This document shows, one piece after another, positions 9,966 to 40,328 of a stretch of DNA of 64,000 nucleotides (positions within the stretch are counted from its first letter, which is position 1; each line of letters begins with the position of its first letter). The notes beneath the pieces were generated by a model, which searched no databases, was not told the DNA's origin, and was given only the letters and a program-made list of their open reading frames with translations. The stretch lies in the IMG/VR virus record IMGVR_UViG_3300025121_000017; one strand, given 5' to 3'. Origin of the DNA: an uncultured virus (IMG/VR IMGVR_UViG_3300025121_000017) (Duplodnaviria; Heunggongvirae; Uroviricota; Caudoviricetes). Made by a program: the position numbers and the translations under genes.

Positions 9966-10208
9966 ATGATTATATTTTCACTCGGTAAGGCTGCAGCCTA
10001 CTTAGGTAAGCATCCACAGACGCTTCAACGTTGGGATCGAGACGGTACTCTCCGCGCAGGACGGTTACCGTCCGGTAGGCGGGTTTACACGCAGGCACAG
10101 CTCGACGCGTGCATTACGGAAGAGAATCCTGAAAGTCCGCCTAAGGACCTGTTGGCGAGGGTAGAGGAGTTGGAGAAGAAGATGGCAGCGCTGGAGGGGA
10201 AGAAGTGA
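9966..10208 (+). CDS. tnpA: IS607 TnpA remnant: MerR-like HTH plus coiled coil, no serine-recombinase catalytic domain
   Basis: SLGKAAAYLGKHPQTLQRWDRDG..GRRVY; only 80 aa; GTGA overlap with tnpB. Confidence 0.75.
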   Translation: MIIFSLGKAAAYLGKHPQTLQRWDRDGTLRAGRLPSGRRVYTQAQLDACITEENPESPPKDLLARVEELEKKMAALEGKK

Positions 10209-11320
10209 TCCGTGCGCATAAGATCAAGCTGAACCCGACTCCGGAGCAGGAGATCTACTTCCGCAAGGCATGCGGCTGCTCCCGCCTTGCGTTCAACTGG
10301 ATGCTGGCGGAGTGGAAGAAGAGGTATGAGTCCGGAGAGAAGTCAACCGCGATAAGCATGACGAAAGCCTTTCGATCCGTGAAGGGTGAGCTGTTTCCGT
10401 TTATGGCAGAAGTGACGAAGTGCGTGGTGGACGGTGCTCGGATCGATATCGGCAGTGCCTTCTCCAACTTCTTCCGAGAGGCCAAGTCCGGCAAGGTAGG
10501 CTATCCCAAGTTCAAATCAAAGCATCGTTCCAAGCCTGCCTTCTATCTGGCGAATGACAAGTTCTCAGTCGATAAACATATCTTGCACGTCCCCAAGCTA
10601 GGTCCCGTCAATATAACTGAACCCCTCCGACTAACCGGCAAGATCCTCTCCGGACGGATCAGCTTCAAAGCGGGTTACTGGTGGGTGGCGATCCAGGTTG
10701 AGTTACCCGATCTGTCCGCCGCAGCCCACACGGGACCAGCGATCGGCGTCGACCTCGGCTTGAAAGAGCTGGCAGTCTGCTCGGATGGGAGACGTTTCCC
10801 GAATCCGAAGCATCTGCAAACCGGCTTGAGGAAGATAAAATCCCTATCCCGCTCCCTAAGCAGGAAAGTTCAAGGCAGCGCGAACTGGCTGAAAGCCAAG
10901 GCTAAACTCGCGCGTGCTCATTACAGGATCGCCTGCAAGCGATCCGATGCGATCCATAAGATGACGACTGAGCTGAGCCGATCTGCCAGCCTGATCGGCA
11001 TGGAGGATCTGAACGTTAAAGATATGGTCCAGAACAGGAGACGGGCACGGTCCATTTCGGATGCCGTCTGGGGTGAAATCAAACGCCAACTCCTTTACAA
11101 AGTACCCGATCGGGTTGTCGAGATTGATCGCTGGTTTCCTTCGAGCAGGCTTTGCGGTGCCTGCGGGGTGGTCAACCAGGACCTAACTCTGGCGGATCGG
11201 ACCTGGACGTGCCCCTGCGGGAGAGAGCATGACCGCGATCTGAACGCTTCAGTTAACATACGTGACGAGGCGATCCGAATTTTGAAGCTGGTCCCGGTAG
11301 TGGCTACCTCGGGACTTTAA
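10205..11320 (+). CDS. tnpB: RNA-guided endonuclease TnpB, copy 1
   Basis: RuvC-I GVDLG, RuvC-II MEDL, Zn finger CxxC..CxC, RuvC-III DRDLNA all intact. Confidence 0.95.
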   Translation: MIRAHKIKLNPTPEQEIYFRKACGCSRLAFNWMLAEWKKRYESGEKSTAISMTKAFRSVKGELFPFMAEVTKCVVDGARIDIGSAFSNFFREAKSGKVGYPKFKSKHRSKPAFYLANDKFSVDKHILHVPKLGPVNITEPLRLTGKILSGRISFKAGYWWVAIQVELPDLSAAAHTGPAIGVDLGLKELAVCSDGRRFPNPKHLQTGLRKIKSLSRSLSRKVQGSANWLKAKAKLARAHYRIACKRSDAIHKMTTELSRSASLIGMEDLNVKDMVQNRRRARSISDAVWGEIKRQLLYKVPDRVVEIDRWFPSSRLCGACGVVNQDLTLADRTWTCPCGREHDRDLNASVNIRDEAIRILKLVPVVATSGL

Positions 11321-11430
11321 AACGTCTGTGGAGGGATCAGTGCACTGGGCTGACCCTGAGAAGCAGGAATTGAAGCGTGCTCATATGGTTGGGCACGTGG
11401 AGAGTAGCAGGGCTTCCTCGTGCAGCGCGT
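11291..11430 (+). ncRNA. TnpB omegaRNA 1; scaffold ends 11410, guide GGCTTCCTCGTGCAGCGCGT
   Basis: Hairpins GTCCCG..CGGGAC and GTGCTCA..TGGGCAC; similarity to the other copies stops at GTAGCAG; 5' end uncertain. Confidence 0.75.
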
Positions 11431-11574
11431 GCTGGACACCGGAGAAGGCGCGCGGGACTCGTTGGTCAAGCTCGTAGGCGAGCTGGCGAGGCTTGACCGG
11501 GGTGAGACGGAAGGGCTGACTGCGGTTATCCCGTGCGCGCCGACGACAAGAAGAGCATAATCTTCGTTGAATAA

Positions 11575-11609
11575 ATGTCATTGACATTTTAAAGCGACTC
11601 GGCTAGTCT
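11575..11609 (+). promoter_or_regulatory. Promoter with ATGTCATTGACAT box
   Basis: TTGACA(11581)-N17-TAGTCT, then AACCTGA and GGAGG. Confidence 0.75.
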
Positions 11610-11633
11610 TGTGCTTGAACCTGAGGCGGAGGA

Positions 11634-11915
11634 GTGACTATGGCAGAATCCACGGCAGACAAAGTACGGCGCGAAGGTATCCGAATGCACTGGCGTGCGA
11701 CTCCAGCCATGCTAGCTGCGGTTAAGGGAGGCCCAGTGGGTAAGTCTGGACGTCCTGTACATCTGGAGACTTACGAGATGTACGAGTGGAACGGCTACAT
11801 CTGGCAGTTCCTGCCGGACGGAACGTTCAACGGTTGGCTGTGTGCGGCGAGCCTGGCGGAACAGTTCGGGTTGGCCAAGGCTGAAGGTGCTGCAGAGCGA
11901 AAGGAGCGCTTGTGA
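11634..11915 (+). CDS. Hypothetical protein
   Basis: Strong RBS GGAGGAG; coupled to the next gene. Confidence 0.65.
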   Translation: MTMAESTADKVRREGIRMHWRATPAMLAAVKGGPVGKSGRPVHLETYEMYEWNGYIWQFLPDGTFNGWLCAASLAEQFGLAKAEGAAERKERL

Positions 11916-12139
11916 GCGTCACGACTGCCAAGAATAAGAAGACAGCCGTAGTCGTGTGCGGCGGTCCCCGCGTAACCGGTTGCGGCGCAACGTCATCAGC
12001 GTATCCTGTAGGACGTTGCGCGCCGGACCTGGACGCGAGCGAGGCATCGGAGAAGGACGGATGGAGCTTCGATTGTGACGTCTGGGCTATGATGCTCGGG
12101 CACTCAAATCTGTGTCCGAACTGCACGCAGCCGAAGTAA
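11912..12139 (+). CDS. Small Cys-rich (putative zinc-binding) protein
   Basis: C..CG and CPNC motifs; GTGA overlap. Confidence 0.55.
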   Translation: MSVTTAKNKKTAVVVCGGPRVTGCGATSSAYPVGRCAPDLDASEASEKDGWSFDCDVWAMMLGHSNLCPNCTQPK

Positions 12140-12149
12140 GGTAATAGAC

Positions 12150-13568
12150 GTGACTACCACCGCCCTCATCCCCCGCACCACCGTAACCGAGATCTGCGCC
12201 CAACGCGACGCCGCCATGTCCGCGATGCGCCGTGCCGCCGATGCCATGTCTTCCGGCAGCACCCTGGCCGAGCAGTCCTACCACTTCGCACAGCTCGCCC
12301 ACGGCGGCGCAACCTTCACGCTCGCGGACCGGAGCAAGTCCGCCGCTTACAAGCGCCTCTTCGAGTCTATTGACCCGGCTGCGTCGCTCGAGGCATATCG
12401 CCAGCAAGTCGACGCCCGGGTGTGGATGAACCTCCTGGCTCTGACCGGCATGGATGCCATGATGGACCGGACCGCCAAGGATGAGCTGTACAAGCAGCTA
12501 TGCGGGAGCGTCCCGGAAGTTACTGAAGACACGGTCTACGCCACGCTCGAGGGGCTGAGGCGTGACGCCTACCTGATCTTTCAGCGGGGACTCGCGCGGG
12601 CCTTCATCGACCTGGATCGGCGTTTCCGCTCGCACGACGCGTTCAAGCTCGGCGCGCGCATCATTCTGACGAGAGTGTTCAACGATTGGGGCAGTTGGAA
12701 CTCTTACAACGGAACACGCGAGACGATCTGCGACGTTGAGCGCGTCTTTGCCGTCCTGGACGGCAACAAACCTGATCCGCGTGGACTCATCGACGCAATC
12801 GACGCTGGGCGCGGGCGTGGCCTCAACCCGAGGCAGTCGGTCACGGAGTCGAGCTATTTCCGCATAAAGACCTACATGAACGGCAACGCGCATCTTTGGT
12901 TCACAGAAGATGCCCTGGTCACCAAAGCCAATCAGGTACTCGCCGACTACTATGGGGAGGTGCTGCCGGACGGCGTGCCGGATGACGTAACTGATCGCGA
13001 CATCCGGGAAAAGTCCACCGCGCTATGCAAGGACCTGAGCTTCTACCCGACACCCGACGCAGTTATTAGGAAGCTGTTGGCGGAGGTGCACATTGACGCC
13101 GAGAGTCATGTACTCGAGCCGTCTGCTGGGGACGGAAGCATCGTCCGTGCGCTGTTGGCAAAAGGCGCGCGAGTTGACGCCGTTGAAGTGGAGCCAGGAC
13201 GCGTGAGAGCTCTGCAGGAGCTGGAGCGCGGGGACCGGCGATTGACCGTCACCCACGCCAACTTTCTGACCATGCCGCCGCGTCCAGTATACAGCCATGT
13301 CGTTATGAACCCGCCTTTCTACGGTGTTCATTTTATGCAGCACGTGATGCGCGCGTATGAGTTCTTGAGGCCAGGAGGCAAGCTCGTGGCTGTGCTGCCC
13401 GCTTCGGTTGAGTTCAACGAGAGTAAGCAGCACGACGCGTTTCGCAAGTGGGCTAAGAAGCACAGTGAACGCTACAGCCAGCTTTTCACGGACCTGCCGG
13501 CTGAGTCTTTCGCTGCGGCGGGGACTCGTATCAATACTGTGTACATTTTGCTCCACAAGGGGCGCTAG
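12150..13568 (+). CDS. DUF4942-type N-terminus fused to an amino-methyltransferase (adenine DNA MTase-like)
   Basis: FYPTP, VLEPSAGDG (motif I), VMNPPF (motif IV); N-terminal YMNGNAHLWF motif. Confidence 0.85.
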   Translation: MTTTALIPRTTVTEICAQRDAAMSAMRRAADAMSSGSTLAEQSYHFAQLAHGGATFTLADRSKSAAYKRLFESIDPAASLEAYRQQVDARVWMNLLALTGMDAMMDRTAKDELYKQLCGSVPEVTEDTVYATLEGLRRDAYLIFQRGLARAFIDLDRRFRSHDAFKLGARIILTRVFNDWGSWNSYNGTRETICDVERVFAVLDGNKPDPRGLIDAIDAGRGRGLNPRQSVTESSYFRIKTYMNGNAHLWFTEDALVTKANQVLADYYGEVLPDGVPDDVTDRDIREKSTALCKDLSFYPTPDAVIRKLLAEVHIDAESHVLEPSAGDGSIVRALLAKGARVDAVEVEPGRVRALQELERGDRRLTVTHANFLTMPPRPVYSHVVMNPPFYGVHFMQHVMRAYEFLRPGGKLVAVLPASVEFNESKQHDAFRKWAKKHSERYSQLFTDLPAESFAAAGTRINTVYILLHKGR

Positions 13569-13578
13569 GAACACACAC

Positions 13579-14163
13579 ATGGCAATCGACTTCTCAAAAC
13601 TCCTTTCTCTGGACACCAAGCAACGCCTCAACCGCGAAGCCGCGACCCGCGCCTACTACCGCGCACTGACCAACGCGGAGCTCGCGTCCGAGGCCTCCTA
13701 CTACCTCGGCAATTGTAGCCGCGACGGACTCGCGTCCGGCCAGATGGGCGACCACTACGACGCCACGATGCGGCACGCGGTGCTGCCGGAGCTCATGCGC
13801 CGGGTCGCCGTCGCTGGCGGTGAGGGTGACTGTCCGCACTGCGAGACGCGGCATCCGGCGCCGTCGAAGTTTAAACAGCACGCGACCATGTTCTGCCCGC
13901 CGGAGCGGGGTGGAGACCGCCACGTGGCTCCGCACCCGTGGGCCAGGTGGAGCGCGGAGCAGCTGACGGACACGAGCGCGGAGAATTGGGACACCGATCG
14001 TCTGTGGATCGTTCAGCGCGAGAAGTTCTGCTGGCGGGTGGAGCGGCTGACTCGATCGCGCGTGGAGCTGGATGAGACGGGGAAGGTTAACCAGGTGCTG
14101 TGGGCTGTGCCGTTTATTGCGCCGTACCCGAGTGTGCATACGTGGGCATGCCTCAATGGATGA
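13579..14163 (+). CDS. Hypothetical protein (CxxC)
   Basis: AGGA RBS, ATG 13579. Confidence 0.6.
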   Translation: MAIDFSKLLSLDTKQRLNREAATRAYYRALTNAELASEASYYLGNCSRDGLASGQMGDHYDATMRHAVLPELMRRVAVAGGEGDCPHCETRHPAPSKFKQHATMFCPPERGGDRHVAPHPWARWSAEQLTDTSAENWDTDRLWIVQREKFCWRVERLTRSRVELDETGKVNQVLWAVPFIAPYPSVHTWACLNG

Positions 14164-14506
14164 TCTGACACATAGGGAACAAGGCGCGGGCGGCGCTCGC
14201 CGCGCTGAGAGGAGTGACGCCATGACCCCTACGAACGTCGTGGATAGCCTCCACGCCTGTTTGGCTTTCTCGCCACGCGACTGGGGCGCAAACAAGCGCG
14301 ACGCCTGGCTATGGGGCATCATCTGCGGGTGGGACGCCGAGAGTCTCGACGAGCTCAGGGTGCGCTTCCGGTGGAGCGCTGCGGAAGTAGCACGCCTGCG
14401 GAAGCTGCGGCAGAATTCGTCACGATTGGGCGTCAGATCGAAGCACGCTCCGTTGAGATGCGTCCTGACGCGGGTCCGCAGTAAATTTATCGCAAAATGT
14501 CATTGA
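14156..14506 (+). CDS. Hypothetical protein
   Basis: RDWxxxxRDAWLWGIxxGW motif; start may be 14222. Confidence 0.55.
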   Translation: MDDLTHREQGAGGARRAERSDAMTPTNVVDSLHACLAFSPRDWGANKRDAWLWGIICGWDAESLDELRVRFRWSAAEVARLRKLRQNSSRLGVRSKHAPLRCVLTRVRSKFIAKCH

Positions 14507-14531
14507 CATTCCATTCCGCCCATAGTAATCT
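14497..14531 (+). promoter_or_regulatory. Promoter with ATGTCATTGACAT box
   Basis: TTGACA(14503)-N17-TAATCT, then AACCTGA, CGGAG, ATG 14564. Confidence 0.75.
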
Positions 14532-14563
14532 CTGTTCATCAACCTGAACGAACGGAGCGCACC

Positions 14564-16042
14564 ATGGACACACTGACCCGCGACGAGCTGACATTCAAAA
14601 TCCTCCGCAGCAAGCTTCCCCGCGCACAGGAGCTCGCCGCCAAGCTCGGCCTCGAGCTGGAAGTCGGGGACATTGATGAGATACGCCTCGCGGCTTCTAT
14701 TTACGAGCAACAGAACGACTGCTGCGCTCCGTCGTACGACCGCCTGCCCGCTGGTATTCAGCGGTGGGCGCACGATCTCGCGGAGGCGCATTGCATTATC
14801 ACCGCCCACGCTCCGCGCTCCGAATGGTCCGTTGTGGCCATCGCGGATCGGTCAGAGGGCGCGCCGATGTTTCACGCCATCGACCCGACGATCCCTTACT
14901 GGACATCGGAGCGCATGGACGCGGTCAACTTCGGACGCTGCGACGAGTGCGGTGTCCAGTCGCGGCGCAACAAGGTCTTTATCGTGGCGCGGGACACCAT
15001 GGCAGCGGAGGGCCAGCCGCACGGAAGCGATGTCGTTGAAGTTGAGGACGGCAAGCGCTGGGTCTACACCCGCCAGATTGGCGGCACGTGCGCCAAGCAC
15101 CTCAACCTGGCCAAGAAGGTCCGGGACCTGCTCGACGGGTTCCAGTCCTTCCTGTCTGGGCTGAGCAACGACGAAGACGAGGACGGTTGGGGCAGCTTCG
15201 GTTCCTCAGGCGTCCCGACTTACTGCCTGCCTCTTGTGCTCCTCTTCGCGGAGGAGACAATCGGCTTCGAGGGCTATGTGTCGCGCAAGTCGTCCGAAGT
15301 CACCGGGCGCATGACGACGGCGCAGCAGGTTCGCGCCGCAGTGTGTGACGCGAAAGGCAAGCTTGCAAAAGAGCTCCGCGCCACTGAGCAGTGGAAGCGA
15401 GCGCTGGCCCGGTCGGAAGCTGGCGAGGGCGAGGCCCTGGCGGCGGAGATCGTGTCCTGGCTTGACGCACAGTCCGATGACAGTTTCCATCGGAACATCC
15501 GGACGGCTTTCACGTCTCAAGCGGAACGCTACATCGGACTGGTCGTCTTTGCCGTCGCCGAGATTCGGAACTGGCGGCTCGAGATCGAGGCTCGCAAGCG
15601 CAAGGCTGAGCCGAAGTGCTACGTGCACGTTGAGACGTCGCTGGATGACGTGCTCGCTGCGTGCGAGCTGAGCGCCGCGGAGCTGGGGGAGTTGCTGGGG
15701 CACGAGTTGACGGGGAAGGTCAAGGCACCTGCACGCAAGGCACTGGCCAAGGTGCTGCCGGGTGTCTGGACGCTTATTGCGCGGGCGAGCTGGGACAGTC
15801 AGTTCGGCTGGCAGGATATGCTTCAACTCGAGCGCGCGGACGGCTCGCGTGTCAAGTGGATAACTGGCAGCCTGGACAGCGACACCAGCTGGCAGAAGGG
15901 TGACAGGTATCTTGTCCTGGCGGCGTCGCTCGGCGAGGATATGGGTGCGCACGAGAAATACGGGGTTCAGGGGCGGAAGATCTCTCGCGCCTGGATCGTG
16001 CCTGTCCCGGTTAAGAATGTGGAGGTGTCGGATGCAGCGTAA
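14564..16042 (+). CDS. Hypothetical protein with CxxC...C Zn-binding motif and possible C-terminal OB-like region
   Basis: 492 aa; RCDECG..RR..F..IGGTCA. Confidence 0.7.
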   Translation: MDTLTRDELTFKILRSKLPRAQELAAKLGLELEVGDIDEIRLAASIYEQQNDCCAPSYDRLPAGIQRWAHDLAEAHCIITAHAPRSEWSVVAIADRSEGAPMFHAIDPTIPYWTSERMDAVNFGRCDECGVQSRRNKVFIVARDTMAAEGQPHGSDVVEVEDGKRWVYTRQIGGTCAKHLNLAKKVRDLLDGFQSFLSGLSNDEDEDGWGSFGSSGVPTYCLPLVLLFAEETIGFEGYVSRKSSEVTGRMTTAQQVRAAVCDAKGKLAKELRATEQWKRALARSEAGEGEALAAEIVSWLDAQSDDSFHRNIRTAFTSQAERYIGLVVFAVAEIRNWRLEIEARKRKAEPKCYVHVETSLDDVLAACELSAAELGELLGHELTGKVKAPARKALAKVLPGVWTLIARASWDSQFGWQDMLQLERADGSRVKWITGSLDSDTSWQKGDRYLVLAASLGEDMGAHEKYGVQGRKISRAWIVPVPVKNVEVSDAA

Positions 16043-16531
16043 CGAGTTGGGTCACCCGGAGCGGCGTCCGGGTGAGGTGTTCCTGGCAATCACGAGGCAG
16101 CTTACCTGCCTCCGTTCTTAACGGCACGTGCCGGAGTTCGCGCTTACTGTGTGGACGGGAGTCCGTACCCGTGCCAGCAAGAGTCAGGCATCGTGCCTTT
16201 ATTTGTCGCAGCAGCTGAGGCGCGTGTCTGCTGGGAGGTGCGAGCGACGCAGTCCCCGTCCCCGCCGCTGGCGGAGTATCTGCGCGAGCAGATCGCTTCG
16301 CTTGACACCTTGGCACAGGAGGGCGCCCGTGAAACGATACGTCTCTACAACTGTTCAAGTTCGATACTTCCCCGCGCGGCAAGGAAAGATGGAACGTATC
16401 CTGGTCAAGGCAGGCGAGTTCGCCGAGACGCTCTACCCGGATACGCATCGCGCATTTGCGTCGTTCAAACAGCTTCTAGCTGGGCGGGAGTCCGTGTCCG
16501 TTCCAGGCTTCGTCGGGCGCAACGGCATTGA
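16032..16531 (+). pseudogene. Frameshifted hypothetical gene (break near 16087)
   Basis: MQRNELGHPERRPGEVFL.. continues in the other frame as NHEAAYLPPFLTARAGVRAYCVDG..PLFV; GGAGGT RBS before 16032. Confidence 0.5.
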
Positions 16532-16689
16532 GATAGGCGAAAGATGATGCATTTAGCTTTACTCCACGGCGGTCCTCTCGGGCTGTGCATCGCAGACATT
16601 GCACTGCTCGTGCAGCTGAGCAGCGCGACGCTACCCTACATCGCTCATTTCATCGCAGGACTGGTGCTCCTGCTCCGAAAGGTGCTCGC

Positions 16690-17187
16690 GTGATTCTGCC
16701 AATCATCAAACCGCCGGATCCGATCCTCTCTCGCGAAGCCGTCCCGGTACTTCCGGGTCAGGACATCTCCGCTCTCATCCGGGACATGATCGACACTCTG
16801 CGCGCCTCCCCGGGCGGCGTGGGGCTTGCTGCGCCGCAGGTGGGGCACAAGCTACGCGTCATTGTTGTCGACCCGACTGGAGGGCGAGAGCCTGCTCGTG
16901 TAATGATCAACCCAGAGATCGTGACGACGTGGGGCGGTGGCATAGCTGAAGCGGAAATGTGCCTTTCATTACCCCTGATTCGGCACACCGTCGAGCGCGC
17001 ATCTTTCGTCACGGTGCGGTATACTGATGCTGAGCACCAGCTCGTTGAGCGAGACTGCTCCGTTTGGGAATCTCGCATCGTTCAACACGAGGTCGACCAC
17101 CTGAATGGGCGAACCCTGCTCATGCACATGAAACCCATGGCGCGAGCTCGCGCGCTCGAGACGATCCGCCTCGGCAGGAAGGTGTAA
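16690..17187 (+). CDS. def: Peptide deformylase
   Basis: GVGLAAPQVG, EMCLSLP, QHEVDHLNG signature motifs. Confidence 0.95.
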   Translation: MILPIIKPPDPILSREAVPVLPGQDISALIRDMIDTLRASPGGVGLAAPQVGHKLRVIVVDPTGGREPARVMINPEIVTTWGGGIAEAEMCLSLPLIRHTVERASFVTVRYTDAEHQLVERDCSVWESRIVQHEVDHLNGRTLLMHMKPMARARALETIRLGRKV

Positions 17188-17188
17188 A

Positions 17189-17437
17189 ATGGCGACCGAC
17201 CTATCCCCACAAGAGCGCGACTACCTCTATGCCCTCGCGTGTAGTGGACCCCAGCGCGTGTTACGCTCCAGCCTATCCGACACGACAAAGACGCTCGCGC
17301 GGCTCGGGTACGTGCACATATACCCGGTCCAGGGGCGCGGGACATCCGCGGCAGACGACGCCTTGATCAGTGCCAGCGAGCAGGCGATGCAGGCTCTCGA
17401 AGCTGCACGCGACGCTGCCTCGCCGCTATCGAGGTAA
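17189..17437 (+). CDS. Hypothetical protein
   Basis: ORF directly after def. Confidence 0.55.
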   Translation: MATDLSPQERDYLYALACSGPQRVLRSSLSDTTKTLARLGYVHIYPVQGRGTSAADDALISASEQAMQALEAARDAASPLSR

Positions 17438-17443
17438 CCGCGC

Positions 17444-17842
17444 ATCAACCCCGACATCCATTCGCCACGCCTCCCGGCGCACATCTCGCCTATCCCATGC
17501 CCCCGCCGCACTGGCCGGAAGCGCCCCGGGGCTGCGCGCGGGTCTTATGTCTGCGATGGGTGCGGTGGGGCTTACCACGCATATCGCTGCCCGGATATCC
17601 CCGCGCAGGGGCGCTTCAGCTGGGCCAGGCGTGAGCTTGAGACATGGCAGGCAGGGGAGCGCCCGTTCACGTCGGAGTGGTTTTGGAGCAGCGGCACCGT
17701 ACCTCGAGGGCGATCGACGCTGCTGTGGTATTTGAAGGTACGCAAGCTCGCGGCGTTTGTAGAGGAACATCGTGGATGCGGAGAAACGAACTTTGACGAT
17801 GAGACGTGGGAAGCGACGCTAGCGCTTATGCACGCCACGTAA
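17444..17842 (+). CDS. Probable Cys/His-containing protein missed by the ORF track (ATC start or read-through)
   Basis: Open frame from TAA 17437 to TAA 17842; GAGGT 8 nt before ATC; CDGCGG..H..RC, HRGC. Confidence 0.45.
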   Translation: MNPDIHSPRLPAHISPIPCPRRTGRKRPGAARGSYVCDGCGGAYHAYRCPDIPAQGRFSWARRELETWQAGERPFTSEWFWSSGTVPRGRSTLLWYLKVRKLAAFVEEHRGCGETNFDDETWEATLALMHAT

Positions 17843-17920
17843 CGCCATTGCTATTGCAGAGTCCGCAGATAGCCGCTACAATCGCTTGACATATTTTACC
17901 GCAGCATAGGAGGCTTCCCC

Positions 17921-20788
17921 GTGTCCGACGAAAAGCAGAAGTTTGTTACCCTCGGAGAGGGTGAGGACCGCCACGTCGTGCCGGTCGGGCCGGACGGTAA
18001 ACTACGCGGCGATCCTCCGCCGCACATCGCCGCACTGATCCACGCTGGGACGAAGGACCCCGCAAAGAAAGCCGCGTGGGCTGAGAAGTTGGAAAAGCCC
18101 GCTGCGGACCACTCCGCTCACCGGGAAGCCGTACTCAAGCACCTCGAGTCTTCCAAGACTGCCACCGCACACGAGGCCGACATCGGCGGGAAGAAGGTGA
18201 AGCTCACCCCCGGCGAGATGCGCTTGACGCAGGCTGCCGGTGTGCACGCACGCCCGTGGATCGCGTCAAGCGAGTGTGTTCCGGACGTGCATGTCCGAGA
18301 GTCCTTCACGCGGGAGCAAGGCAGCCGGTCTGGGCGAGGGCGCACGAATTGGACGCTGCAAGAGCGTGCGCCGGAAGAAGCACAAAAGCCGGCCGCTGAC
18401 CCCCGCGTCACGTCCGCTGTCGAGGCAGAGTCCGGCGTGAGATTCGGGCGGCGCAACGTGGCCAGAGCAGAGGAGCAGCTCACTGCACGTAAAGCCGATG
18501 CGGATAGGCTCGCGACTGTGCTCGCCGGAGCCAAGGGCACGCACCTGGAAAGCGGGCACAAGCACCCGCACAAGATGGCGCTGGCCATGGTCGCCGCCGC
18601 TGCGAGAGAACTGGACGATGAGCGTGCCAAGCTCGAGGATACGTTGGCATCCAAGACGCGTATGCACTCGGCTATCTTTCGGGGCAAGGACCGGGGCGAA
18701 GAGATCGTCCGGCAGGCTCGGGAGATTAAGGACCCGGCGGAACGGGAGAAATTCTTGAGGGACGCGAGGGAGAGGAGCGGCAGCTCTGGCGTGGAGGAAG
18801 CGGTGGATGCGGAGCTTGCGCAGAGCGGCACGGCTATGCCAGCCCCAAGCGCATTCTCCTCCGCCGGTATCAAAGACCTCCAGGAGCTGTCCGAGACCAT
18901 CCAGGCCCGCGGCAAGCGGCACGGCCCCTCTACAGCTCGAGACGTAGCAGAATCCAACACGGACGCCGTCGATGACGCCCTCGCCGACATCCACAAAGAC
19001 GCACGCCGTCAGGGCGTTGACCCGCACGCCTTTACCGCGCATCACCTGGGCGAACACGGCCCCGTGCTGGCGAAACACTACCCGGATAAGTTCCCAGGGA
19101 TCGCACCTGCCAGCGACTCGGCCCCGGCGGCAAAGCCTCCCGCCCCGGTGGACCACAAGGTCTCGAGCATGGACGCCTCGAAGCTTGCCGAGCACCATGC
19201 CGCGCTGCTCGAGGAACAGCGCAAGCTGACACAACGAGAGCGCCTCGGAACCGCAAAGGCGAGCGACCGCGACAGACAAGCTCAGCTGGTCCACGAGATA
19301 GCAGACGCTGGAGGCGAAAAACACCGACGGGCGAAAGAAGCTGTGCAGACCGCGGAACGGGCTGCGCACGCCAAGGATGCGCAAGAAAAGCAGCGGTGGG
19401 GCTCCCTGTCCGAGGCGGAGCGCCAGGCCATTGTGAGCGCTGGCGGGACACGGTCTGACTGGAGAACGCGTGAGCAGCGCCGCCACGATGATAACGCGTC
19501 CTACCTCTCAAAAGAGCTGGAACGCCAGCAGGCCAGGATGGATCGGACGAAGGATCCGGAGAGTCGAGCGGAGTACGCGCCAGGGCTGGAGCAGGCGAGA
19601 CAGGATGCGCAGAGTCACTTGAGCAAGCCGCGTCCGGAGGCGCCGGCTGAGATTCATGCGGCGCAACAGCGGCACCCGGGGAGTGTGCCGGACCACGAGG
19701 CGGCGCTGCGCGCGATTCGGGAGAAGCATGGGCTGGGGAGTGCGCCGGACGACTGGCACACGTTCGCGGCGAAGCACCCCGACGTCGCTGGTCAAATCTC
19801 CGACGTGCTCCAGGGACATCCTCAACGCAAGGTGCAGATGAGCCTTATGGCCCGCGCCCACCAAAAGCACGGGGAGGAGCAGAAAGAGTGGGACAAGCTG
19901 GTCACTCGGACGCCTTTCGAACATAAAACGTTCCGAGCGCCTACCACAACGAAGTCCGCCGTTGATCTCCACGGTGCCGCATACGGAGGCCTCGTCGCGC
20001 ATAAAGACGACGCGGGCGACTGGGCCGTGTCGCATCTGGGATCGGGGTTGCGGCTCAATCAAGCGCCGCTCGAGTCGGAGCAGACAGCGAAGCGTGGATT
20101 ACTCGCGGCGCACGGGTTGGCTGCGCGCGACGCGCAATCGTCGGTGGACTGGACAAAGGCGAACGTCACTAAAGAGCCTGGGTTCAAGCGCGTGGCGCAG
20201 GACATTGAGGCGTCGGTGCACGCGCCGAGTGACTGGGCGCACTATGCGGCGAATGAGGGGCTGCACTGGGGGAATCGAGGGGGCGCTGCCGACGTGCTTA
20301 AGCGTGGGCAGGACGCCGCACCTGCCGCACCTGCCGCACCTAGTCCGGCAGAAGCCTATCACGCAGCCGACGAGGCGTGGTACAAGGCCAACGCCCGCCA
20401 TCGGAAGCGCTTTCAGCTTGACGACCGGTCCCATAACACGCTCGCAGGAACGCATGGGCATAAAGAGTCGGAGGCGAAGGTACACGCGTTAGCGCAACAC
20501 GCAGAGGCCCTGCGGGAGAAGGCCGGTATCCCGAGCCCCTACTACGCCAATACTGCGCATCGTGCGACGGCTGAGCTGGCCCCACGCGTAGAGCGCAAGC
20601 TGGACGAGAAAGCGAGAGACGCCCGGAAGCACGCAGAGACACTCGCGAAGATGATCAAAGAATATGGCGCGGGAAATTCTGGCGGAAAGGCTGCCCACGA
20701 GATTGAGTCAGACTTTGGCGTGAGCGCCAGGCTTAGGACGAAGTTCCCGGACCTGTTCGCCGCGGAACCGCACTCTAGCTCCCAATAA
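17921..20788 (+). CDS. Large modular protein, paralogous at the N-terminus to 43340-45163
   Basis: 955 aa; AGGAGG RBS; N-terminus DEKQKFVTLGEGEDRHVVPVGPDGKL.. shared with the 43340 protein. Confidence 0.75.
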   Translation: MSDEKQKFVTLGEGEDRHVVPVGPDGKLRGDPPPHIAALIHAGTKDPAKKAAWAEKLEKPAADHSAHREAVLKHLESSKTATAHEADIGGKKVKLTPGEMRLTQAAGVHARPWIASSECVPDVHVRESFTREQGSRSGRGRTNWTLQERAPEEAQKPAADPRVTSAVEAESGVRFGRRNVARAEEQLTARKADADRLATVLAGAKGTHLESGHKHPHKMALAMVAAAARELDDERAKLEDTLASKTRMHSAIFRGKDRGEEIVRQAREIKDPAEREKFLRDARERSGSSGVEEAVDAELAQSGTAMPAPSAFSSAGIKDLQELSETIQARGKRHGPSTARDVAESNTDAVDDALADIHKDARRQGVDPHAFTAHHLGEHGPVLAKHYPDKFPGIAPASDSAPAAKPPAPVDHKVSSMDASKLAEHHAALLEEQRKLTQRERLGTAKASDRDRQAQLVHEIADAGGEKHRRAKEAVQTAERAAHAKDAQEKQRWGSLSEAERQAIVSAGGTRSDWRTREQRRHDDNASYLSKELERQQARMDRTKDPESRAEYAPGLEQARQDAQSHLSKPRPEAPAEIHAAQQRHPGSVPDHEAALRAIREKHGLGSAPDDWHTFAAKHPDVAGQISDVLQGHPQRKVQMSLMARAHQKHGEEQKEWDKLVTRTPFEHKTFRAPTTTKSAVDLHGAAYGGLVAHKDDAGDWAVSHLGSGLRLNQAPLESEQTAKRGLLAAHGLAARDAQSSVDWTKANVTKEPGFKRVAQDIEASVHAPSDWAHYAANEGLHWGNRGGAADVLKRGQDAAPAAPAAPSPAEAYHAADEAWYKANARHRKRFQLDDRSHNTLAGTHGHKESEAKVHALAQHAEALREKAGIPSPYYANTAHRATAELAPRVERKLDEKARDARKHAETLAKMIKEYGAGNSGGKAAHEIESDFGVSARLRTKFPDLFAAEPHSSSQ

Positions 20789-22056: not shown

Positions 22057-22076
22057 ATGACGCCGGAAGAGTACGT
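21938..22076 (+). ncRNA. TnpB omegaRNA 2; scaffold ends 22056, guide ATGACGCCGGAAGAGTACGT
   Basis: Conserved scaffold; terminal hairpin CATACTTA..TGAGTATG has compensatory changes relative to copies 1 and 3. Confidence 0.75.
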
Positions 22077-33697: not shown

Positions 33698-33719
33698 GCC
33701 TTCGCTTGCTCCGAACGAA

Positions 33720-33749: not shown

Positions 33750-33835
33750 CTTGCGCGCCCGGTTCTCCCGTCGGGCCTTCGGGGTAGGCGATTTATCGTT
33801 CTAACGGGAGACACGCGCTGGGAGGCGCGCTATTT

Positions 33836-34953: not shown

Positions 34954-34959
34954 GCGGCA

Positions 34960-37479
34960 GTGAGCGACGATCGCAGCGAAATCAAAATTGTAGCGGAGCT
35001 CGACGCCGCGCAAGTCGCTCGTACGATCGAGGCCGGGAATCGTGCGGCTGCGCAGAGTGTTGCGTCCGGAGCTGCTGGCGGGCGTGGAAGGAAGGGGAGT
35101 CGGGCGGAACAGGCGGAAGCGCCGGTACCGCTCATTTCCCGCTATGCGCCGCGGGCTAGAACTGCGGCTGGGCGTACAATAGACGCTGAAGAAAATTGGG
35201 AGCTTCCCTGGGAGGGCGAAGGGGGTTTAGGGGCGCCTGCAGCTGTCACACCTCGTGGCGCGCCGCCGATAGTGGACCCTGAAAAAGAAGCGGCATTACT
35301 CAAAGCACAGCATAAGTATTGGAACCCCACACTCTGGAAGATGGTGTGGACCGAAGATGCTGGCAAGCCTCCTGAGCCCCAAGAACCCGTTGCGCCGCGA
35401 ATTAACAGAGGGGAGCAGGGGTACCATACCGCCAATCCAATGGCGGATAACGCGCAAGGCAGAGGAGAGAAACAAGGCGACGCACCAAAAATAGAAGGCG
35501 AAAAAGAACAGGCATGGCTTCGTGCGGCGAGTGTGTATCATGCACGATCGTATGCCCCTGCGTCCGCCGCGTCTGACGGAGAGGGAGAAGACGAGTCCGG
35601 CCCGTCTTACGTCCCTCACCGTCCAGGCGCGCGCTGGCGCCTCAATGCCTTCGGTGCCACTGCCTTCCGCGCCGGGCTGGCCCCTATCGCTGTCGGCATG
35701 CACTTCGGCTTAGCCGCCGCCTTGAGCCCGTTCCGAATCGCAGCCGCTGCACGGCAGGCGGGCGGGTTTGGCAACCTGAGCGTGGCCGACGCCTCCTCAG
35801 CCGCGTTCGGTGACGTCCGCCGTAATCTCGGCACGCAAGCTGACCTCATCGGGCAGGGAGCCTCACAGACCGTCTCGCGGCAGCGCGTCAAAACTTCCGA
35901 TGATGACGAGGGGGACGGCGAAGACGACGCCAACCCAGAAGAGCGCCGCCATCGCGAGATGATGAGCGCGATGAAGAAGTACGGCGGACAGGGTGCCAAC
36001 CTGACGCGTAACGTCGCGATGGGGGCCGTCGGATACGGGATCGGCTCCAGCATCATGGGCTTCTTTTCAGAGGCCTCCCAGCAGTACATCCAGCACGCTG
36101 CGACGCTTCGCCAGCTCAAGCAGACCTATCGAGAATTTGGGGCAGAGGCAACGAGTGTCGGACGCAGCATCGGCTACGTGACTGAGGAGACGTCGAAGCT
36201 TGTCGGGGCGATCGGCACGCAAACGAACAGTGTCACGAGCACCAGGTTCATGCAGTATGCGGGGTTTGCGCGGCAGTACGGGCTCGAGGATACCGAAGTC
36301 GCAGGTACAGTTGGTAAGATCAGCCGATTGTCCGGCGGGCACTTCTTCCAGGCGTCCGAGGGACAGCTGAGCTCTGCGCAGCGTCAGCTGGGCATGACGC
36401 GCGCGCAGGCGCAGCGGCAGAGCTCGTCAATCTCACTCCTGGGGATTCACGCGGCGGCTGAGGCGTCCGGCATGGGCCAGGGCCGTTTCGGTGAGTACAT
36501 GCAGACACTCTCCTCTGCGGCGGAAGCGCAATTCCACGCGACAGGAGAGGTCAACTCAGGCGCGATGTTCGCGACGAAGTTCGGCGGCATGGTGTTTGGG
36601 CAGGACTCGGAGCGCGGGCGCGGTGAGTCTGGGCTCAGCTTCGCGCAAGGCGCGGGACGGATGATGTCCGGCGACAGCTCGCAAGCCATGCGCGTCTACA
36701 TGATGCGCGCGCTGAATTATGGCAAGGCCGGCGGGCCTGGCATGATCGAGATGGACAAGCAGCTCGAGGCCGGCATCACGGACCCCAAGAACGCTGCGGC
36801 TTTCTTCGGACGGATCCGGCAGACGACGTCTGGCATGTCCGCAGAGAACCGGAAGTTCACCGCCTACATGATGCTGAAAGACGACGCAAAAAAGAGCGGG
36901 TTGAACGCATCGGGGCTCGAGGCACTGGTGGACGCGGGGTTCGACGACGCCAAATTCGCCCAGATGCAAGAGTTTGCGGAGGACCCTGACAAGGCCATGG
37001 AGGCGAATTTTAGCGCAGAGGGGCTGAACAAGGGGGCGTTTAAGGCGGGTGGGTTCGGTGAGGTGGGGCGGCGCAAGACAACGTTGGCGGAAGCGCGGAA
37101 GGTGCAGCTCGAGTCAATGAAAGAGGGGGTTGGCGCCGAAGTCACCGGGATCATGGTGACGCTCGGCAACACCATGAAGAACCTTGGTGGCGCTTTTAGC
37201 GATCTCTTCAAAGGCATCTCCGGGCAGCGACCGTTGCAAGCGTTGCAAGGCCTCGCGACATCCGCCGAACGCGCGTCCGAGACTCTTGAAATGCTCTCCG
37301 CTACGTCTGCCGGACAGTACGCGACGAAAGGCGTCACGGGTGTCCTGGGTGAGTTCTGGGACGAGTTCGGCGTCCGCCGGATGTGGAACGCGCAGCACCC
37401 GACGACAGGCACGATCCGCACGCGAAAAAATCCCGCTAAACACCCGCCCACTGCCGGTGCTGGGGGCGGTAACCGATGA
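34960..37479 (+). CDS. Tape measure protein
   Basis: 839-aa Ala/Gly/Met-rich helical protein after the chaperones. Confidence 0.7.
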   Translation: MSDDRSEIKIVAELDAAQVARTIEAGNRAAAQSVASGAAGGRGRKGSRAEQAEAPVPLISRYAPRARTAAGRTIDAEENWELPWEGEGGLGAPAAVTPRGAPPIVDPEKEAALLKAQHKYWNPTLWKMVWTEDAGKPPEPQEPVAPRINRGEQGYHTANPMADNAQGRGEKQGDAPKIEGEKEQAWLRAASVYHARSYAPASAASDGEGEDESGPSYVPHRPGARWRLNAFGATAFRAGLAPIAVGMHFGLAAALSPFRIAAAARQAGGFGNLSVADASSAAFGDVRRNLGTQADLIGQGASQTVSRQRVKTSDDDEGDGEDDANPEERRHREMMSAMKKYGGQGANLTRNVAMGAVGYGIGSSIMGFFSEASQQYIQHAATLRQLKQTYREFGAEATSVGRSIGYVTEETSKLVGAIGTQTNSVTSTRFMQYAGFARQYGLEDTEVAGTVGKISRLSGGHFFQASEGQLSSAQRQLGMTRAQAQRQSSSISLLGIHAAAEASGMGQGRFGEYMQTLSSAAEAQFHATGEVNSGAMFATKFGGMVFGQDSERGRGESGLSFAQGAGRMMSGDSSQAMRVYMMRALNYGKAGGPGMIEMDKQLEAGITDPKNAAAFFGRIRQTTSGMSAENRKFTAYMMLKDDAKKSGLNASGLEALVDAGFDDAKFAQMQEFAEDPDKAMEANFSAEGLNKGAFKAGGFGEVGRRKTTLAEARKVQLESMKEGVGAEVTGIMVTLGNTMKNLGGAFSDLFKGISGQRPLQALQGLATSAERASETLEMLSATSAGQYATKGVTGVLGEFWDEFGVRRMWNAQHPTTGTIRTRKNPAKHPPTAGAGGGNR

Positions 37480-39023
37480 CAATGCGCGCCGAACACTCCG
37501 GCACCACCTTCGAGTCCGGAGCCCCCCACGTCACCGTCTGGACAGGCTTCGACGGACTCCGCAAGATGGAGATCGGTGGGGACGGTCTGCGCCTCAGCAC
37601 GTCGAAATCGATCAGCGGCACGACGGGCCAGTTTACCCTCGAGCTGCTCCCTCGAGACGGCATTGGACTGACTGAGAAGGCTATTCGCTCCGGCGCGGAG
37701 CGACTACCGCTGTACCTGTCCGCCATTGCGCCCAACACGCCGATCTCGATCGGATTCGAGCGAGAGGGCGGCGTCATGCTGGGGCTGGTGCGGTCCTGCG
37801 ATTGGACGACATTCGCGGTCGGCGACAAGCTCCAGGACGGCATCACGATCACAGGCACTGACTTCGGGCACATGCTCGACGACCACATCTTGCAGATGCA
37901 GGTCTCGACGGCGGACCATGCACGCTGGACGGAAGCGATCAAATCGGTGTTGGGGCCAGACGCGCCGATTCTCAAAGAGCTGGTCGGCGCGGAAGGGCCG
38001 GTGAACGCAGCGGGGGAGCGGTCGCTCGAGGGTGTGACGGTGCAGGCGGTGGCGGAATACTGCCTCAAGCGTGTAGCTGGAATGCGTGTGCCGGTGCTGC
38101 GTCAGGCCTTCGGCGGACGCGGCTACATCGGCGACTTCACCGAAGTCCGGGCGAGCTCATTCGACGGGGACCTGGTGTACAAGACGGGACTCTTCACGCA
38201 GGAGACAACCGTCTCGGGCTATCTACAGGAGATCCTCGACAAGGACTTCTACGAGTTTCGCATGGACACCCTGCCTCCGGACGCGGCCAAGGGACGCAAC
38301 GTCGCGCGTCCGGTGCTGGTGATCCGTCCGAAGCCTTTCGACGAGGAAGCGTTCCAGAACGTTTCGCTGTGGCCACCCACGCCGCGCACTTCGGTGTCCT
38401 CCTGGGAGCGGCTCACCACTATGCTGGACAAAGACCGGCACCACCAGGTCGACCGAGGCCATGTCGTGGGACAGGTGCGGCTCGGGCGCAGCCGTGACGA
38501 GGCCTTCAGCTTTTACACTGTGCAGAATAACAACGAGCTGGGCTTCACCAGCTCTAACGCCTCGAGCGGCGCAGCGTTCCCGCTCTACGACCTGTACAAC
38601 GGCACCCGGTTCATCACGCAGCGTTACGACAGCCGCTGCTCCCAGGTGGCGGCGGACCCGAAGAAGAAATCGTTTGAGTCACTCATCGGGCAGTCGCTGG
38701 GCGTCAGGCGCAACCGCCTGCACTGCTGGTACCGCGCCAATCCGGACTTTGTCACTGGGTCGCTTCGCGTCCGTGGCAAGGACAGTTATCGAGTTGGGGA
38801 CCCGGTGTGGATCCCGTGGCTGCCGGATCCGCTGACGGGCAGGCCTGGCATCCGCGCCTATTGCACCGCAGTGAACCATGAGTGGTCGTTCGGCGGAGGG
38901 TACGCTTGCACGCTTAGTTTGAGCCGTGGCCATGGTCCGGGATTTTGGGAGCAGCATGTTAGACAAGTTAAATCTGCGATGCCACTGTCACTACTCAAAG
39001 GTTGGGTAAGCGCCGATAGATAG
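37476..39023 (+). CDS. Putative baseplate hub protein; last 23 codons supplied by the TnpB cassette
   Basis: TSKSI...GQFTLEL, ITITGTDFG, C-terminal GSLRVRG..YRVGD..Y.TAVNHEW..L.RG hub pattern. Confidence 0.7.
   Translation: MTMRAEHSGTTFESGAPHVTVWTGFDGLRKMEIGGDGLRLSTSKSISGTTGQFTLELLPRDGIGLTEKAIRSGAERLPLYLSAIAPNTPISIGFEREGGVMLGLVRSCDWTTFAVGDKLQDGITITGTDFGHMLDDHILQMQVSTADHARWTEAIKSVLGPDAPILKELVGAEGPVNAAGERSLEGVTVQAVAEYCLKRVAGMRVPVLRQAFGGRGYIGDFTEVRASSFDGDLVYKTGLFTQETTVSGYLQEILDKDFYEFRMDTLPPDAAKGRNVARPVLVIRPKPFDEEAFQNVSLWPPTPRTSVSSWERLTTMLDKDRHHQVDRGHVVGQVRLGRSRDEAFSFYTVQNNNELGFTSSNASSGAAFPLYDLYNGTRFITQRYDSRCSQVAADPKKKSFESLIGQSLGVRRNRLHCWYRANPDFVTGSLRVRGKDSYRVGDPVWIPWLPDPLTGRPGIRAYCTAVNHEWSFGGGYACTLSLSRGHGPGFWEQHVRQVKSAMPLSLLKGWVSADR
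38952..39023 (+). repeat. Recoded direct repeat, copy A (translated): QHVRQVKSAMPLSLLKGWVSADR*
   Basis: Codon-by-codon alignment with 40309-40380: 23/72 nt differ, 22/23 aa identical. Confidence 0.95.
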
Positions 39024-39101
39024 CATTCACTGCGCAGAAACGCATGCAGCTATGCCCCATATTTGCTATAATACAAGTCCACTGTCGGAGTATTTATTCG
39101 C

Positions 39102-40217
39102 ATGATCCGCGCCCACAAAATCCGCCTCAACCCAACCCCCGATCAGGAGGTCTACTTCCGCAAGGCGTGCGGCTGCTCCCGCCTTGCGTTCAACTGGATG
39201 CTGGCGGAGTGGAAACGGGTGTATGAGTCCGGAGAGAAGCCAAATGCGCTGCGCATGACGAAAGCCTTTCGATCCGTGAAGGGTGAGATCTTTCCGTTCA
39301 TGGCGGAAGTGACGAAGTGCGTGGTGGATGGAGCGAAGATCGATATTGGGTCCGCCTTCTCCAACTTCTTCCGGGAGGCCAAGTCCGGCAAGATCGGCTA
39401 CCCCAAGTTCAAGTCTAAGCATAAGAGCAAGCCGTCCTTCTACCTGGCGAATGACAAGTTTTCAGTCGACAAACATATTCTGCACGTTCCCAAGCTCGGC
39501 CCCGTCAACATGACTGAACCTCTCCGCTTTGCCGGAAAGATCCTCTCCGGACGGGTCAGCTTCAAGTCGGGCTACTGGTGGGTATCGATCCAGGTTGAGA
39601 TGCTCGGTCTGCCTGCAACCTTTCGCACGGGTCCAGCGATTGGCGTCGACCTGGGCCTGAAAGAATTGGCAGTCTGCTCGGACGGGAGACGTTTCCCGAA
39701 CCCGAGGCACCTCCAGGCTGGCATAAGGAAGATAAGATCCCTATCTCGAGCGCTTGCGCGGAAGATCAAAGGCAGCGCGAACTGGCTGAAAGCCAAGGCC
39801 AAGCTCGCGCGCGCCCATTATCGAATCGCCTGCAGGAGATCCGATGCGATCCATAAGATGACGACTGAGCTTGCACGAGGGGCAAGCCTGATCGGGTTGG
39901 AAGACTTGAACGTCAAAGGCATGCTCCAGAACAGGAGACTGGCCCGGTCTATCTCGGATGCCGTCTGGGGTGAGATCAAACGTCAGCTCCTCTATAAAGC
40001 ACCTGATCGGGTCGTGCAGATCGATCGGTGGTTCCCCTCGAGCCGGCGCTGCAGGCTCTGCGGTACGATCAACGCGGATCTTACGCTGGCGGATCGGGCC
40101 TGGGTGTGCGCTTGCGGGGTGGAACATGATCGCGATTTGAACGCCTCGATCAATATCAGGGATGAAACGATTCGTTTAATGCAACTGGTCCCGGTGATGG
40201 CTATGTCGGGACTTTAA
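39102..40217 (+). CDS. tnpB: RNA-guided endonuclease TnpB, copy 3
   Basis: GVDLG, LEDL, CxxC/CxC, DRDLNA intact. Confidence 0.95.
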   Translation: MIRAHKIRLNPTPDQEVYFRKACGCSRLAFNWMLAEWKRVYESGEKPNALRMTKAFRSVKGEIFPFMAEVTKCVVDGAKIDIGSAFSNFFREAKSGKIGYPKFKSKHKSKPSFYLANDKFSVDKHILHVPKLGPVNMTEPLRFAGKILSGRVSFKSGYWWVSIQVEMLGLPATFRTGPAIGVDLGLKELAVCSDGRRFPNPRHLQAGIRKIRSLSRALARKIKGSANWLKAKAKLARAHYRIACRRSDAIHKMTTELARGASLIGLEDLNVKGMLQNRRLARSISDAVWGEIKRQLLYKAPDRVVQIDRWFPSSRRCRLCGTINADLTLADRAWVCACGVEHDRDLNASINIRDETIRLMQLVPVMAMSGL

Positions 40218-40328
40218 ACACGCCTGTGGAGGGATCGGTGCACTGGGCCGGCTCGAGGAAGCAGGAATTGAAGCGTGCACATATGCTTGGGCACGCGGAG
40301 AGTAGCAGCAACACGTGAGGCAGGTCAA
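40188..40328 (+). ncRNA. TnpB omegaRNA 3; scaffold ends 40308, guide CAACACGTGAGGCAGGTCAA
   Basis: Conserved scaffold and hairpins as in copies 1 and 2. Confidence 0.75.

Follow-up and report, generated by a model that had tools for sequence, protein, structure and literature searches.

Three transposase-less TnpB-omegaRNA cassettes of the IS607 lineage in a large groundwater phage

The DNA analysed here, a stretch of 64,000 nucleotides (hereafter the window) from the uncultured virus IMGVR_UViG_3300025121_000017 of IMG/VR, is part of a large, novel tailed phage of high GC content (about 62%) from groundwater. Three tnpB genes lie on its plus strand, at 10205-11320 (copy 1, c1; 371 amino acids, GTG start), 20855-21967 (copy 2, c2; 370 amino acids, ATG start) and 39102-40217 (copy 3, c3; 371 amino acids), and all three cassettes to which they belong are intergenic and co-oriented with structural genes. 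For copy 2, we placed the start at ATG 20855 and not at TTG 20798 of the longest open reading frame (ORF), because the Pfam helix-turn-helix (HTH) domain begins at residue 20 of that frame and the family alignment agrees. HTH_OrfB_IS605, OrfB_IS605 (RuvC) and Cas12f1-like_TNB (zinc-ribbon) domains were found in each copy above the Pfam cut-offs, with E-values of 1e-12 to 1e-30 per domain. At the protein level c2 and c3 are 75% and 84% identical to c1, and over all pairs identity amounts to 75-84% in protein and 74-81% in DNA. The protein database places these TnpBs on contigs of up to 184,768 bp (~185 kb), and the longest of these contigs carries two more paralogs outside the window, P0003 (80%) and P0004 (78%). 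All five paralogs group together in a single clade (100/99), to which P0006 is sister, and every one of them has a full-length ORF.

A first-pass annotation of this DNA had called the three TnpBs catalytically intact, and both their domains and their acidic residues agree with that description. D183, E267 and D343 are present in all three copies, are invariant in six of six aligned proteins and align with the acidic residues of ISDra2 TnpB (8BF8, E 7.6e-61) and ISFba1 TnpB (8IAZ, E 1.4e-49). The active site of the latter is published as D194/E290/D371 (Ren et al. 2024, PMC11061315), from which the chain numbering in our alignment is offset by a few residues. The four-cysteine zinc finger is likewise complete (C317, C320, C336, C338). 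Its second knuckle reads CxC (C336-x-C338) in all five phage paralogs, giving a CxxC...CxC finger, while the other 115 listed relatives mostly have CxxC there (62 by pattern and two with CxxxxC; the pattern missed 51, of which the four inspected by eye are CxxC). As the active ISFba1 enzyme also has CxC, this form of the knuckle is not a defect. The phage TnpBs are predicted to carry out RNA-guided DNA cleavage that depends on a target-adjacent motif (TAM).

DNA similarity among the three loci breaks off abruptly after ...GAGAGTAGCAG, at 11410, 22056 and 40308, which marks where each element ends on the right. The closing bases are ...GCAG throughout, and ...GCAGG at copy 1. The last ~125 nt before this point fold into four helices, namely one across the stop codon, a nested pair with the core CCUGUGGAG...GAAGCAGGAA, and a terminal hairpin. 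A covariance model built from c1-c3 and L008, the nearest relative outside the phage, places the omegaRNA scaffolds on the plus strand at 11286-11410 (copy 1; the modelled 3' 125 nt, which span the stop codon and end at the right end; 144.4 bits), 21933-22056 (copy 2; 134.2 bits) and 40183-40308 (copy 3; 140.7 bits). Its 52 matches in 86 sources always lie at the 3' end of a tnpB, and within the window it matched only the three expected places. Across 44 distinct sequences, 91.2% of cells were paired as compared with 71.8% after shuffling and 36-57% after sliding, in an alignment that was fitted to the model and hence favours structure. Changes on both sides were seen at 27 of 32 pairs among these 44 distinct relatives, and the observed values were reached by none of 500 shuffles. 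The terminal hairpins that had been proposed to covary between the copies are indeed present and do so: c1 and c3 differ from c2 by two G-C to A-U swaps plus wobble changes in this stem.

Termination of the proteins falls within this structure. The window copies end at a TAA inside the first scaffold helix (11318-11320, 21965-21967 and 40215-40217), ~40 amino acids before the ends of the 408-residue ISDra2 protein and of relatives of 413-415 residues, which read on through the scaffold (...VPVVASSGQKFACGAE...). Paralog P0004 (381 amino acids) extends 10 residues further than the window copies. To judge from these ends, the C-terminal ~40 amino acids seem dispensable in this clade.

Placed from the right end, with a length assumed from the literature, the predicted guides are the plus-strand flanking DNA at 11411-11430 for copy 1, where a GTG at 11420 starts a 46-codon ORF; 22057-22076 for copy 2, beginning exactly at the ATG of an 89-codon ORF (22057-22326); and 40309-40328 for copy 3, a segment that covers the stop codon (40325-40327) of a convergent HTH_3 gene on the minus strand and the DNA immediately past it. 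When 16-nt guide windows were compared with the rest of the 64 kb, the best other matches had 2-4 mismatches (one with 2, the others with 3-4), and none followed a canonical TAM.

On the left, the end of copy 1 was placed at 9916-9965 (plus strand) by alignment with the left ends of four metagenomic relatives (L008, L011, L015, L012). It contains a promoter-like arrangement of TTGCTA (9929-9934), an 18-nt spacer and TG-extended TAATGT (9950-9958), which a consensus promoter scanner did not call. Immediately before it stands AGGAGG (9910-9915, plus strand), a canonical IS607 TAM that is also Shine-Dalgarno-like. It aligns with AGGAGG, GGGAGG and AAGGAG at the left junctions of L011, L015 and L012, and relatives that have several copies in different contexts show A(A)GGAGG or GGGAG at this junction. 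This agrees with published work, as IS607 TnpBs are reported to cut DNA next to AGGAG/GAGGG TAMs (Ren et al. 2024, PMC11061315).

Copies 2 and 3 begin differently, with a promoter directly before tnpB. The left end of copy 2 (20769-20854, plus strand, start approximate) has a TG-extended -10 TGGTATAAT at 20812-20820, part of a TACACA-18-TATAAT promoter (10/12, with TG), and a GCACTCTAGCTC motif that aligns with the left end of L008. Copy 3 has a TG-extended -10 TGCTATAAT at 39064-39072 (plus strand), 29 nt upstream of its tnpB; the left boundary of the element is undefined, between 39024 and 39063. The common motif TGNTATAAT occurs only twice in 64 kb, at these two places 29-34 nt upstream of the starts, against 0.17 occurrences expected by chance, in keeping with the earlier proposal that both copies have extended -10 promoters of their own. 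Around the two motifs, the sequence can be aligned, though weakly, with the promoter at the left end of c1 and L008. Among the three left ends the consensus promoter/terminator scanner called the copy-2 promoter only, with counts not above those of shuffles; the -10 of copy 3 was not called as it has no -35. That the TGnTATAAT boxes are ordinary phage promoters was rejected, since the motif stands nowhere else in the 64 kb, and so was the idea that GGAG/GAGG, 13 nt before the start codons of c2 and c3, is the true left boundary, since the element-specific promoters lie further upstream.

Directly upstream of copy 1 we found an 80-residue tnpA remnant (9966-10208, plus strand; Pfam HTH_17/MerR), in which the MerR-type HTH is all that is left of an IS607 serine recombinase, the catalytic domain being gone. 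The first-pass annotation, in which the region of interest began at 10205, had recognised the three genes correctly and had overlooked this remnant just to their left. Its stop overlaps the start of tnpB copy 1 by 4 nt, as in L008, whose TnpB is 60% identical and whose TnpA is complete. The remnant matches the N-terminus of the full 202-residue L008 TnpA at 40 of 48 residues (83%), with dN 0.137 and dS 2.99 (nonsynonymous and synonymous divergence) over these 48 codons. Upstream of copies 2 and 3 there is no tnpA at all. In the metagenomic relatives, 33 of 70 ORFs upstream of tnpB carry a Resolvase domain, most with a MerR HTH, a length of ~200 residues and an overlap with the tnpB start, which is the IS607 layout; many of these loci are near-identical, so that the 70 ORFs are not independent. 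In one ~50% relative, the place of TnpA directly before tnpB is taken by an ORF (L025:212-1099) with a weak LAGLIDADG_3 match.

No complete transposase had been noticed in the window, and our searches agree. With the TnpAs of eight relatives as queries, tblastn of the window returned the N-terminal HTH at 9954-10181 as its sole match, with no similarity to the Resolvase domain, and none of the 49 other window ORFs had a transposase or recombinase Pfam domain. The search for a full IS607 serine recombinase was also extended beyond the window: the 184,768-bp contig is not represented among the best 120 of 3124 TnpA homologues, and a search for longer proteins similar to the copy-1 HTH matched only the L008 TnpA, both of them weak negatives. 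From their sequences, the copies are almost certainly tnpA-less TnpB-omegaRNA cassettes of the IS607 lineage, not autonomous elements.

These data bear on the possibility that the cassettes, derived from IS607 and no longer autonomous, are still mobilised in trans by the TnpA of a paralog outside the window, the rest of the phage or an IS607 of the host, with TnpB serving restorative homing after excision. Copy 1 would suit such a role, for its TAM is canonical, its left end can be aligned with those of autonomous relatives and its right end reads ...CAGG; about half of the relatives are autonomous, the DNA around P0003 and P0004 lies outside the analysed window, and restorative homing has been reported for IS607 (Zedaveinyte et al. 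2024, in PMC13565253). However, the two weak negatives just given speak against it, as do the left ends of the other copies, that of copy 3 being unalignable and that of copy 2 lacking a canonical TAM. Recent transposition should also have left near-identical copies, yet even the closest pair reaches no more than 81% identity in DNA, so that the many recent identical insertions by which such movement might be recognised are absent. In addition, a search of one genome per species (185,579 species genomes) found cellular relatives that are at best 51-52% identical. We therefore regard movement by a TnpA in trans as unlikely, albeit the strongest of the alternatives.

Divergence among the copies has been accompanied by constraint. 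The ratio of nonsynonymous to synonymous substitution rates (dN/dS), far from 1, was 0.142 (c1-c2), 0.144 (c1-c3) and 0.185 (c2-c3) by NG86, with dS of 0.75-1.25, and 0.09-0.15 by YN00, with dS up to 1.8; these pairwise values are near saturation and cover all the time since the copies split, including time before the loss of tnpA. Three-point arithmetic on the pairwise distances gives terminal-branch values of about 0.11, 0.17 and 0.25. The scaffold is conserved as well: its 90 nt after the stop codon are 74-87% identical between copies as compared with 53-67% at third codon positions. Both the TnpB protein and its RNA have been under purifying selection. The earlier proposal that this selection acted after tnpA was lost is upheld in its first part only, as pairwise dN/dS spans the whole divergence. 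Selection since the loss is nevertheless suggested because all five ORFs are intact at dS of about 1 and the diverged copies 2 and 3 share their tnpA-less layout.

The same observations argue against the cassettes being decaying relics, with ORFs still open only through recent loss of tnpA and with a functionless nuclease and RNA. Decay is certainly seen in tnpA, and the TAMs at copies 2 and 3 are degenerate. But full-length frames in five of five paralogs despite dS of about 0.75-1.8 between copies, dN/dS of 0.14-0.19 with low values on the terminal branches, a non-coding scaffold more conserved than synonymous sites and compensatory hairpin changes between copies are not what relics would be expected to show. 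Besides, copies 2 and 3 have the same promoter-tnpB arrangement at 23% DNA divergence, which suggests that the loss of tnpA is old. Of the explanations considered, we hold this one to be the least credible, and very improbable.

As had been described, the copies are mosaics, c1 resembling c3 in the N-terminal part and c2 resembling c3 in the C-terminal part and the 5' hairpin. In the first 400 nt, identity is 83-89% between c1 and c3 as compared with 55-74% to c2, and from about nt 660 on (most of the last 450 nt) c2 and c3 are usually the closest pair. The peptide VPVMAMSGL is common to c2 and c3, while c1 has VPVVATSGL. In the first (5') helix of the scaffold, pair 158-165 is G-C in c1 and L008 as compared with A-U in c2 and c3, changed on both sides, a swap that coincides with the protein change from VVAT to VMAM. 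The maximum chi-square on informative sites (30.3) was reached by none of 2000 permutations, and by two of 2000 when only third positions were used, in a three-sequence test that region-specific rate shifts could mimic. When all five paralogs are compared, which copy is nearest to which also varies from one segment of the protein to the next. Exchange between copies by recombination, as the first-pass annotation had assumed, is thereby supported.

What keeps such cassettes in a phage once their transposase has gone? We favour the reading that they are three of at least five diverged, tnpA-less IS607 TnpB-omegaRNA (OMEGA) cassettes in one ~185-kb phage that persist by homing, and give it roughly an even chance. 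This judgement applies to the statement as a whole, homing included, and not to the identity and intactness of the cassettes, the selection on them, their RNA structure, their mosaicism or the absence of tnpA in the window, all established above. Expression, cleavage and homing are what we infer from these features. A single ancestral IS607 element would have spread within the phage lineage while its tnpA worked. Then tnpA would have decayed, leaving copy 1 with the HTH and copies 2 and 3 with a left-end promoter directly before tnpB. Each cassette would make TnpB together with an RNA whose scaffold overlaps the end of tnpB and whose last ~16-20 nt are copied from the DNA to the right of the element. 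The ribonucleoprotein would cut a genome in which a TAM is directly followed by that flank, that is, the unoccupied allele in a co-infecting relative, and repair from the occupied genome would copy the cassette and its neighbours across, as TnpA-independent 'non-restorative' homing or marker exclusion. Cutting the unoccupied alleles of co-infecting relatives is plausibly the most economical mechanism of persistence and matches published proposals: 'non-restorative homing' into co-infecting phages or plasmids has already been set out in a 2026 review (PMC13565253).

A number of points count against this explanation. A canonical TAM was found only at copy 1, for copy 2 has CGGAAC at the aligned position and the left end of copy 3 cannot be aligned, and in ISFba1 any single TAM change is reported to have abolished cutting (PMC11061315), although the flanks of a donor may drift once the element is in place. 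An Rfam scan of the window at the gathering threshold gave no match, and c1 and c3 were not listed for RAGATH-18, the guide RNA family of IS607 TnpBs, at E≤5. Neither an empty site nor a polymorphism nor a related phage was found in GenBank phages, IMG/VR or the contigs of the sequencing runs. At third codon positions, the GC content of the tnpB genes (0.66-0.73) lies at or under the lower limit of the range seen in 22 phage genes (mean 0.77, minimum 0.68), from which it follows that the cassettes are not fully ameliorated. To these come the limits already given for the pairwise dN/dS values and the recombination test, and the scope of the DNA itself, as the analysed 64 kb leave the P0003 and P0004 loci and the rest of the contig outside.

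Among known systems, ISFba1-type IS607 TnpB with its RAGATH-18-derived reRNA/omegaRNA (8IAZ, PMC11061315) offers the closest likeness in organisation. The phage proteins share its domain order, acidic residues and CxxC...CxC finger, a guide scaffold with a CCUGUGGAG...GAUGAAGCAGGAA core at the gene's 3' end, the AGGAG-type TAM at copy 1 and, in their relatives, a serine-recombinase TnpA. RAGATH-18 has been identified as the guide RNA of IS607 TnpBs (PMC13565253, PMC11061315), and the scaffold resembles this family (Rfam RF03064) in its conserved core alone, most clearly at 21972-22016 in c2, which scores 29.1 bits (E 0.11) and stays below the gathering score of 44.9. The phage copies differ from ISFba1 in missing that threshold, in lacking tnpA save for the remnant at copy 1 and in residing in a phage as five diverged paralogs. 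By sequence they are nearer to ISDra2 TnpB than to ISFba1, the E-values being those given above. Of the natural homologues with solved structures, the ISDra2 TnpB-omegaRNA complex of the IS200/IS605 group (8BF8, 8EXA, 8H1J) matches best. The alignment covers residues 3-357 and retains the GVDxG, E and DRD motifs, and the ISDra2 guide is likewise taken from the right-end flank. The transposase of ISDra2, however, is a Y1/HUH TnpA and its TAM is AT-rich (PMC13565253), whereas the relatives of the phage copies have serine recombinases and a G-rich TAM.

For the proposed way of persisting, the nearest precedent is the TnpA-independent TnpB 'gene drive' of IS605 among plasmids, which has been demonstrated experimentally (Mears et al. 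2025, in PMC13565253); homing into co-infecting phages appears in the same review as a theoretical case. Persistence without a transposase, through cutting of the unoccupied allele and repair from the occupied one, is the proposal in both instances. However, the plasmid case was shown by experiment, whereas the phage cassettes are known from sequence alone and no filled/empty pair was found. The free-standing homing endonucleases Seg and Mob of T-even phages (PMC13565253) are comparable in being small nuclease genes between conserved phage genes that are expected to favour inheritance of themselves and their neighbours in co-infection. They are non-homologous to TnpB, and target recognition by the phage TnpBs would rely on an RNA guide and a TAM instead of on protein.

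TldR, a group of nuclease-dead TnpB-like prophage repressors (Wiegand et al.), is another phage-borne relative of TnpB with a guide RNA. TldR proteins lack the catalytic residues and have retargeted guides, whereas the phage copies are catalytically intact and their guides are adjacent DNA; on these grounds they are not TldR members. The existence of such derivatives with host-directed roles nonetheless brings to mind that the phage may have domesticated its nucleases, be it for killing competitors without self-copying, for degrading host or plasmid DNA, or for stimulating recombination at module boundaries; they would then have ceased to behave as selfish homing elements. Long retention in one phage lineage, promoters of their own and the intergenic, co-oriented placement of all three cassettes would fit such a function. 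Against it stand guides that show no retargeting, with no other match behind a canonical TAM, and catalytic residues that are intact, unlike those of TldR, and no sequence feature sets domestication apart from homing. We rate domestication as rather improbable, somewhat below movement by a TnpA in trans and well above decay.

As for the phage itself, PHROG and Pfam matches in the window include tail, baseplate and lysin proteins, a weak major-head match, a helicase-primase, an exonuclease, an HNH endonuclease and a peptide deformylase; the last of these lies at 16585-17187 (plus strand; Pfam E 6.5e-41). The HNH domain is N-terminal in a 508-residue protein (53026-54552, minus strand) encoded among replication genes, possibly a homing endonuclease of the free-standing kind. 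A short distance past cassette 1, at 12150-13568 (plus strand), lies a gene for a DUF4942 protein whose methyltransferase-domain matches are weak and below threshold, PHROG methyltransferase families matching more strongly than Pfam domains. The 1679-residue ORF at 62-5101 (plus strand) had no Pfam or PHROG match, and a tRNA scan of the window gave no match. In 50,697 GenBank phage records, there was no DNA match to 10000-22000 and none to the capsid-like protein, and the best TnpB relative was 40% identical. Scans of IMG/VR with copy 3, the tail protein at 37476-39020 and the capsid-like protein found no close relative, TnpB relatives being at most 53% identical. Apart from L008 and relatives of ~50%, a metagenome scan returned only a 2-kb fragment (L007) identical to the copy-1 locus.

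Six groundwater-metagenome runs from two studies contain 97-99% of the window's sampled words, and some of them may be the source sample. The same cassette arrangement was assembled in four of four groundwater runs from two studies, among which the source sample may also be, and run contigs span the right junction of copy 2 and the left junction of copy 3. The contigs of the four runs showed no joint across any cassette; as contigs drop rare variants, they are uninformative on rare empty alleles. Long joints at 22006->40258, 40047->21938 and 40308->20501 were rejected as paralog artefacts, arising from one 9974-nt copy-1-to-copy-2 contig mis-laid on copy 3. In run X5, one contig skips 589 nt (36098-36688) inside an 839-residue gene (34960-37479), at a depth of 37.9 as compared with about 194 and with a flank of only 25 nt, which could be a minority deletion variant or an artefact.

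A further observation concerns where elements of this clade insert. At right ends located by the covariance model, 27 of 37 distinct junctions have an ORF start codon within 15 nt downstream (1-12 nt), as compared with 23% (1733/7400) of random positions taken from the same loci (L008-L086 and the window), ORFs being counted from 50 codons upwards, or from 25 codons when they run off the end of a locus. About six of the ten misses are matches whose true right end lies further on. In the window, the c2 guide begins at an ATG (22057-22059), and c1 is flanked on the left by AGGAGG and followed, 10 nt from its right end, by a GTG (11411-11422). A start codon near the right end combined with an AGGAG TAM on the left means that the elements lie between a Shine-Dalgarno sequence and its start codon, so that the guide covers the translation-initiation region. 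Elements of this IS607 clade thus appear, from these junctions, to occupy the interval from the ribosome-binding site of a gene to the start codon. In the literature consulted, including the main text of PMC11061315 with its supplements set aside, we found no statement linking the IS607 TAM or insertion to ribosome-binding site and start codon.

Taken further, and only tentatively, a phage lineage of the virulent type might have long kept at least five transposase-less TnpB cassettes (dS of about 1), each evolving separately, as RNA-guided gene drives acting between co-infecting phages, with a TAM that doubles as a Shine-Dalgarno sequence and a guide over the translation-initiation region, a target that would be hard for the victim to mutate.

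The known working of TnpB systems is unchanged by the present case, which adds a compact (370-371 residues), high-GC clade of IS607-type TnpBs with defined guide-RNA ends. Self-maintenance of TnpB without a transposase is under test on plasmids and has so far only been proposed for phages. The groundwater phage described here offers a natural case of this situation, with five diverged, intact and recombining pairs of nuclease and guide RNA in one genome without a transposase.

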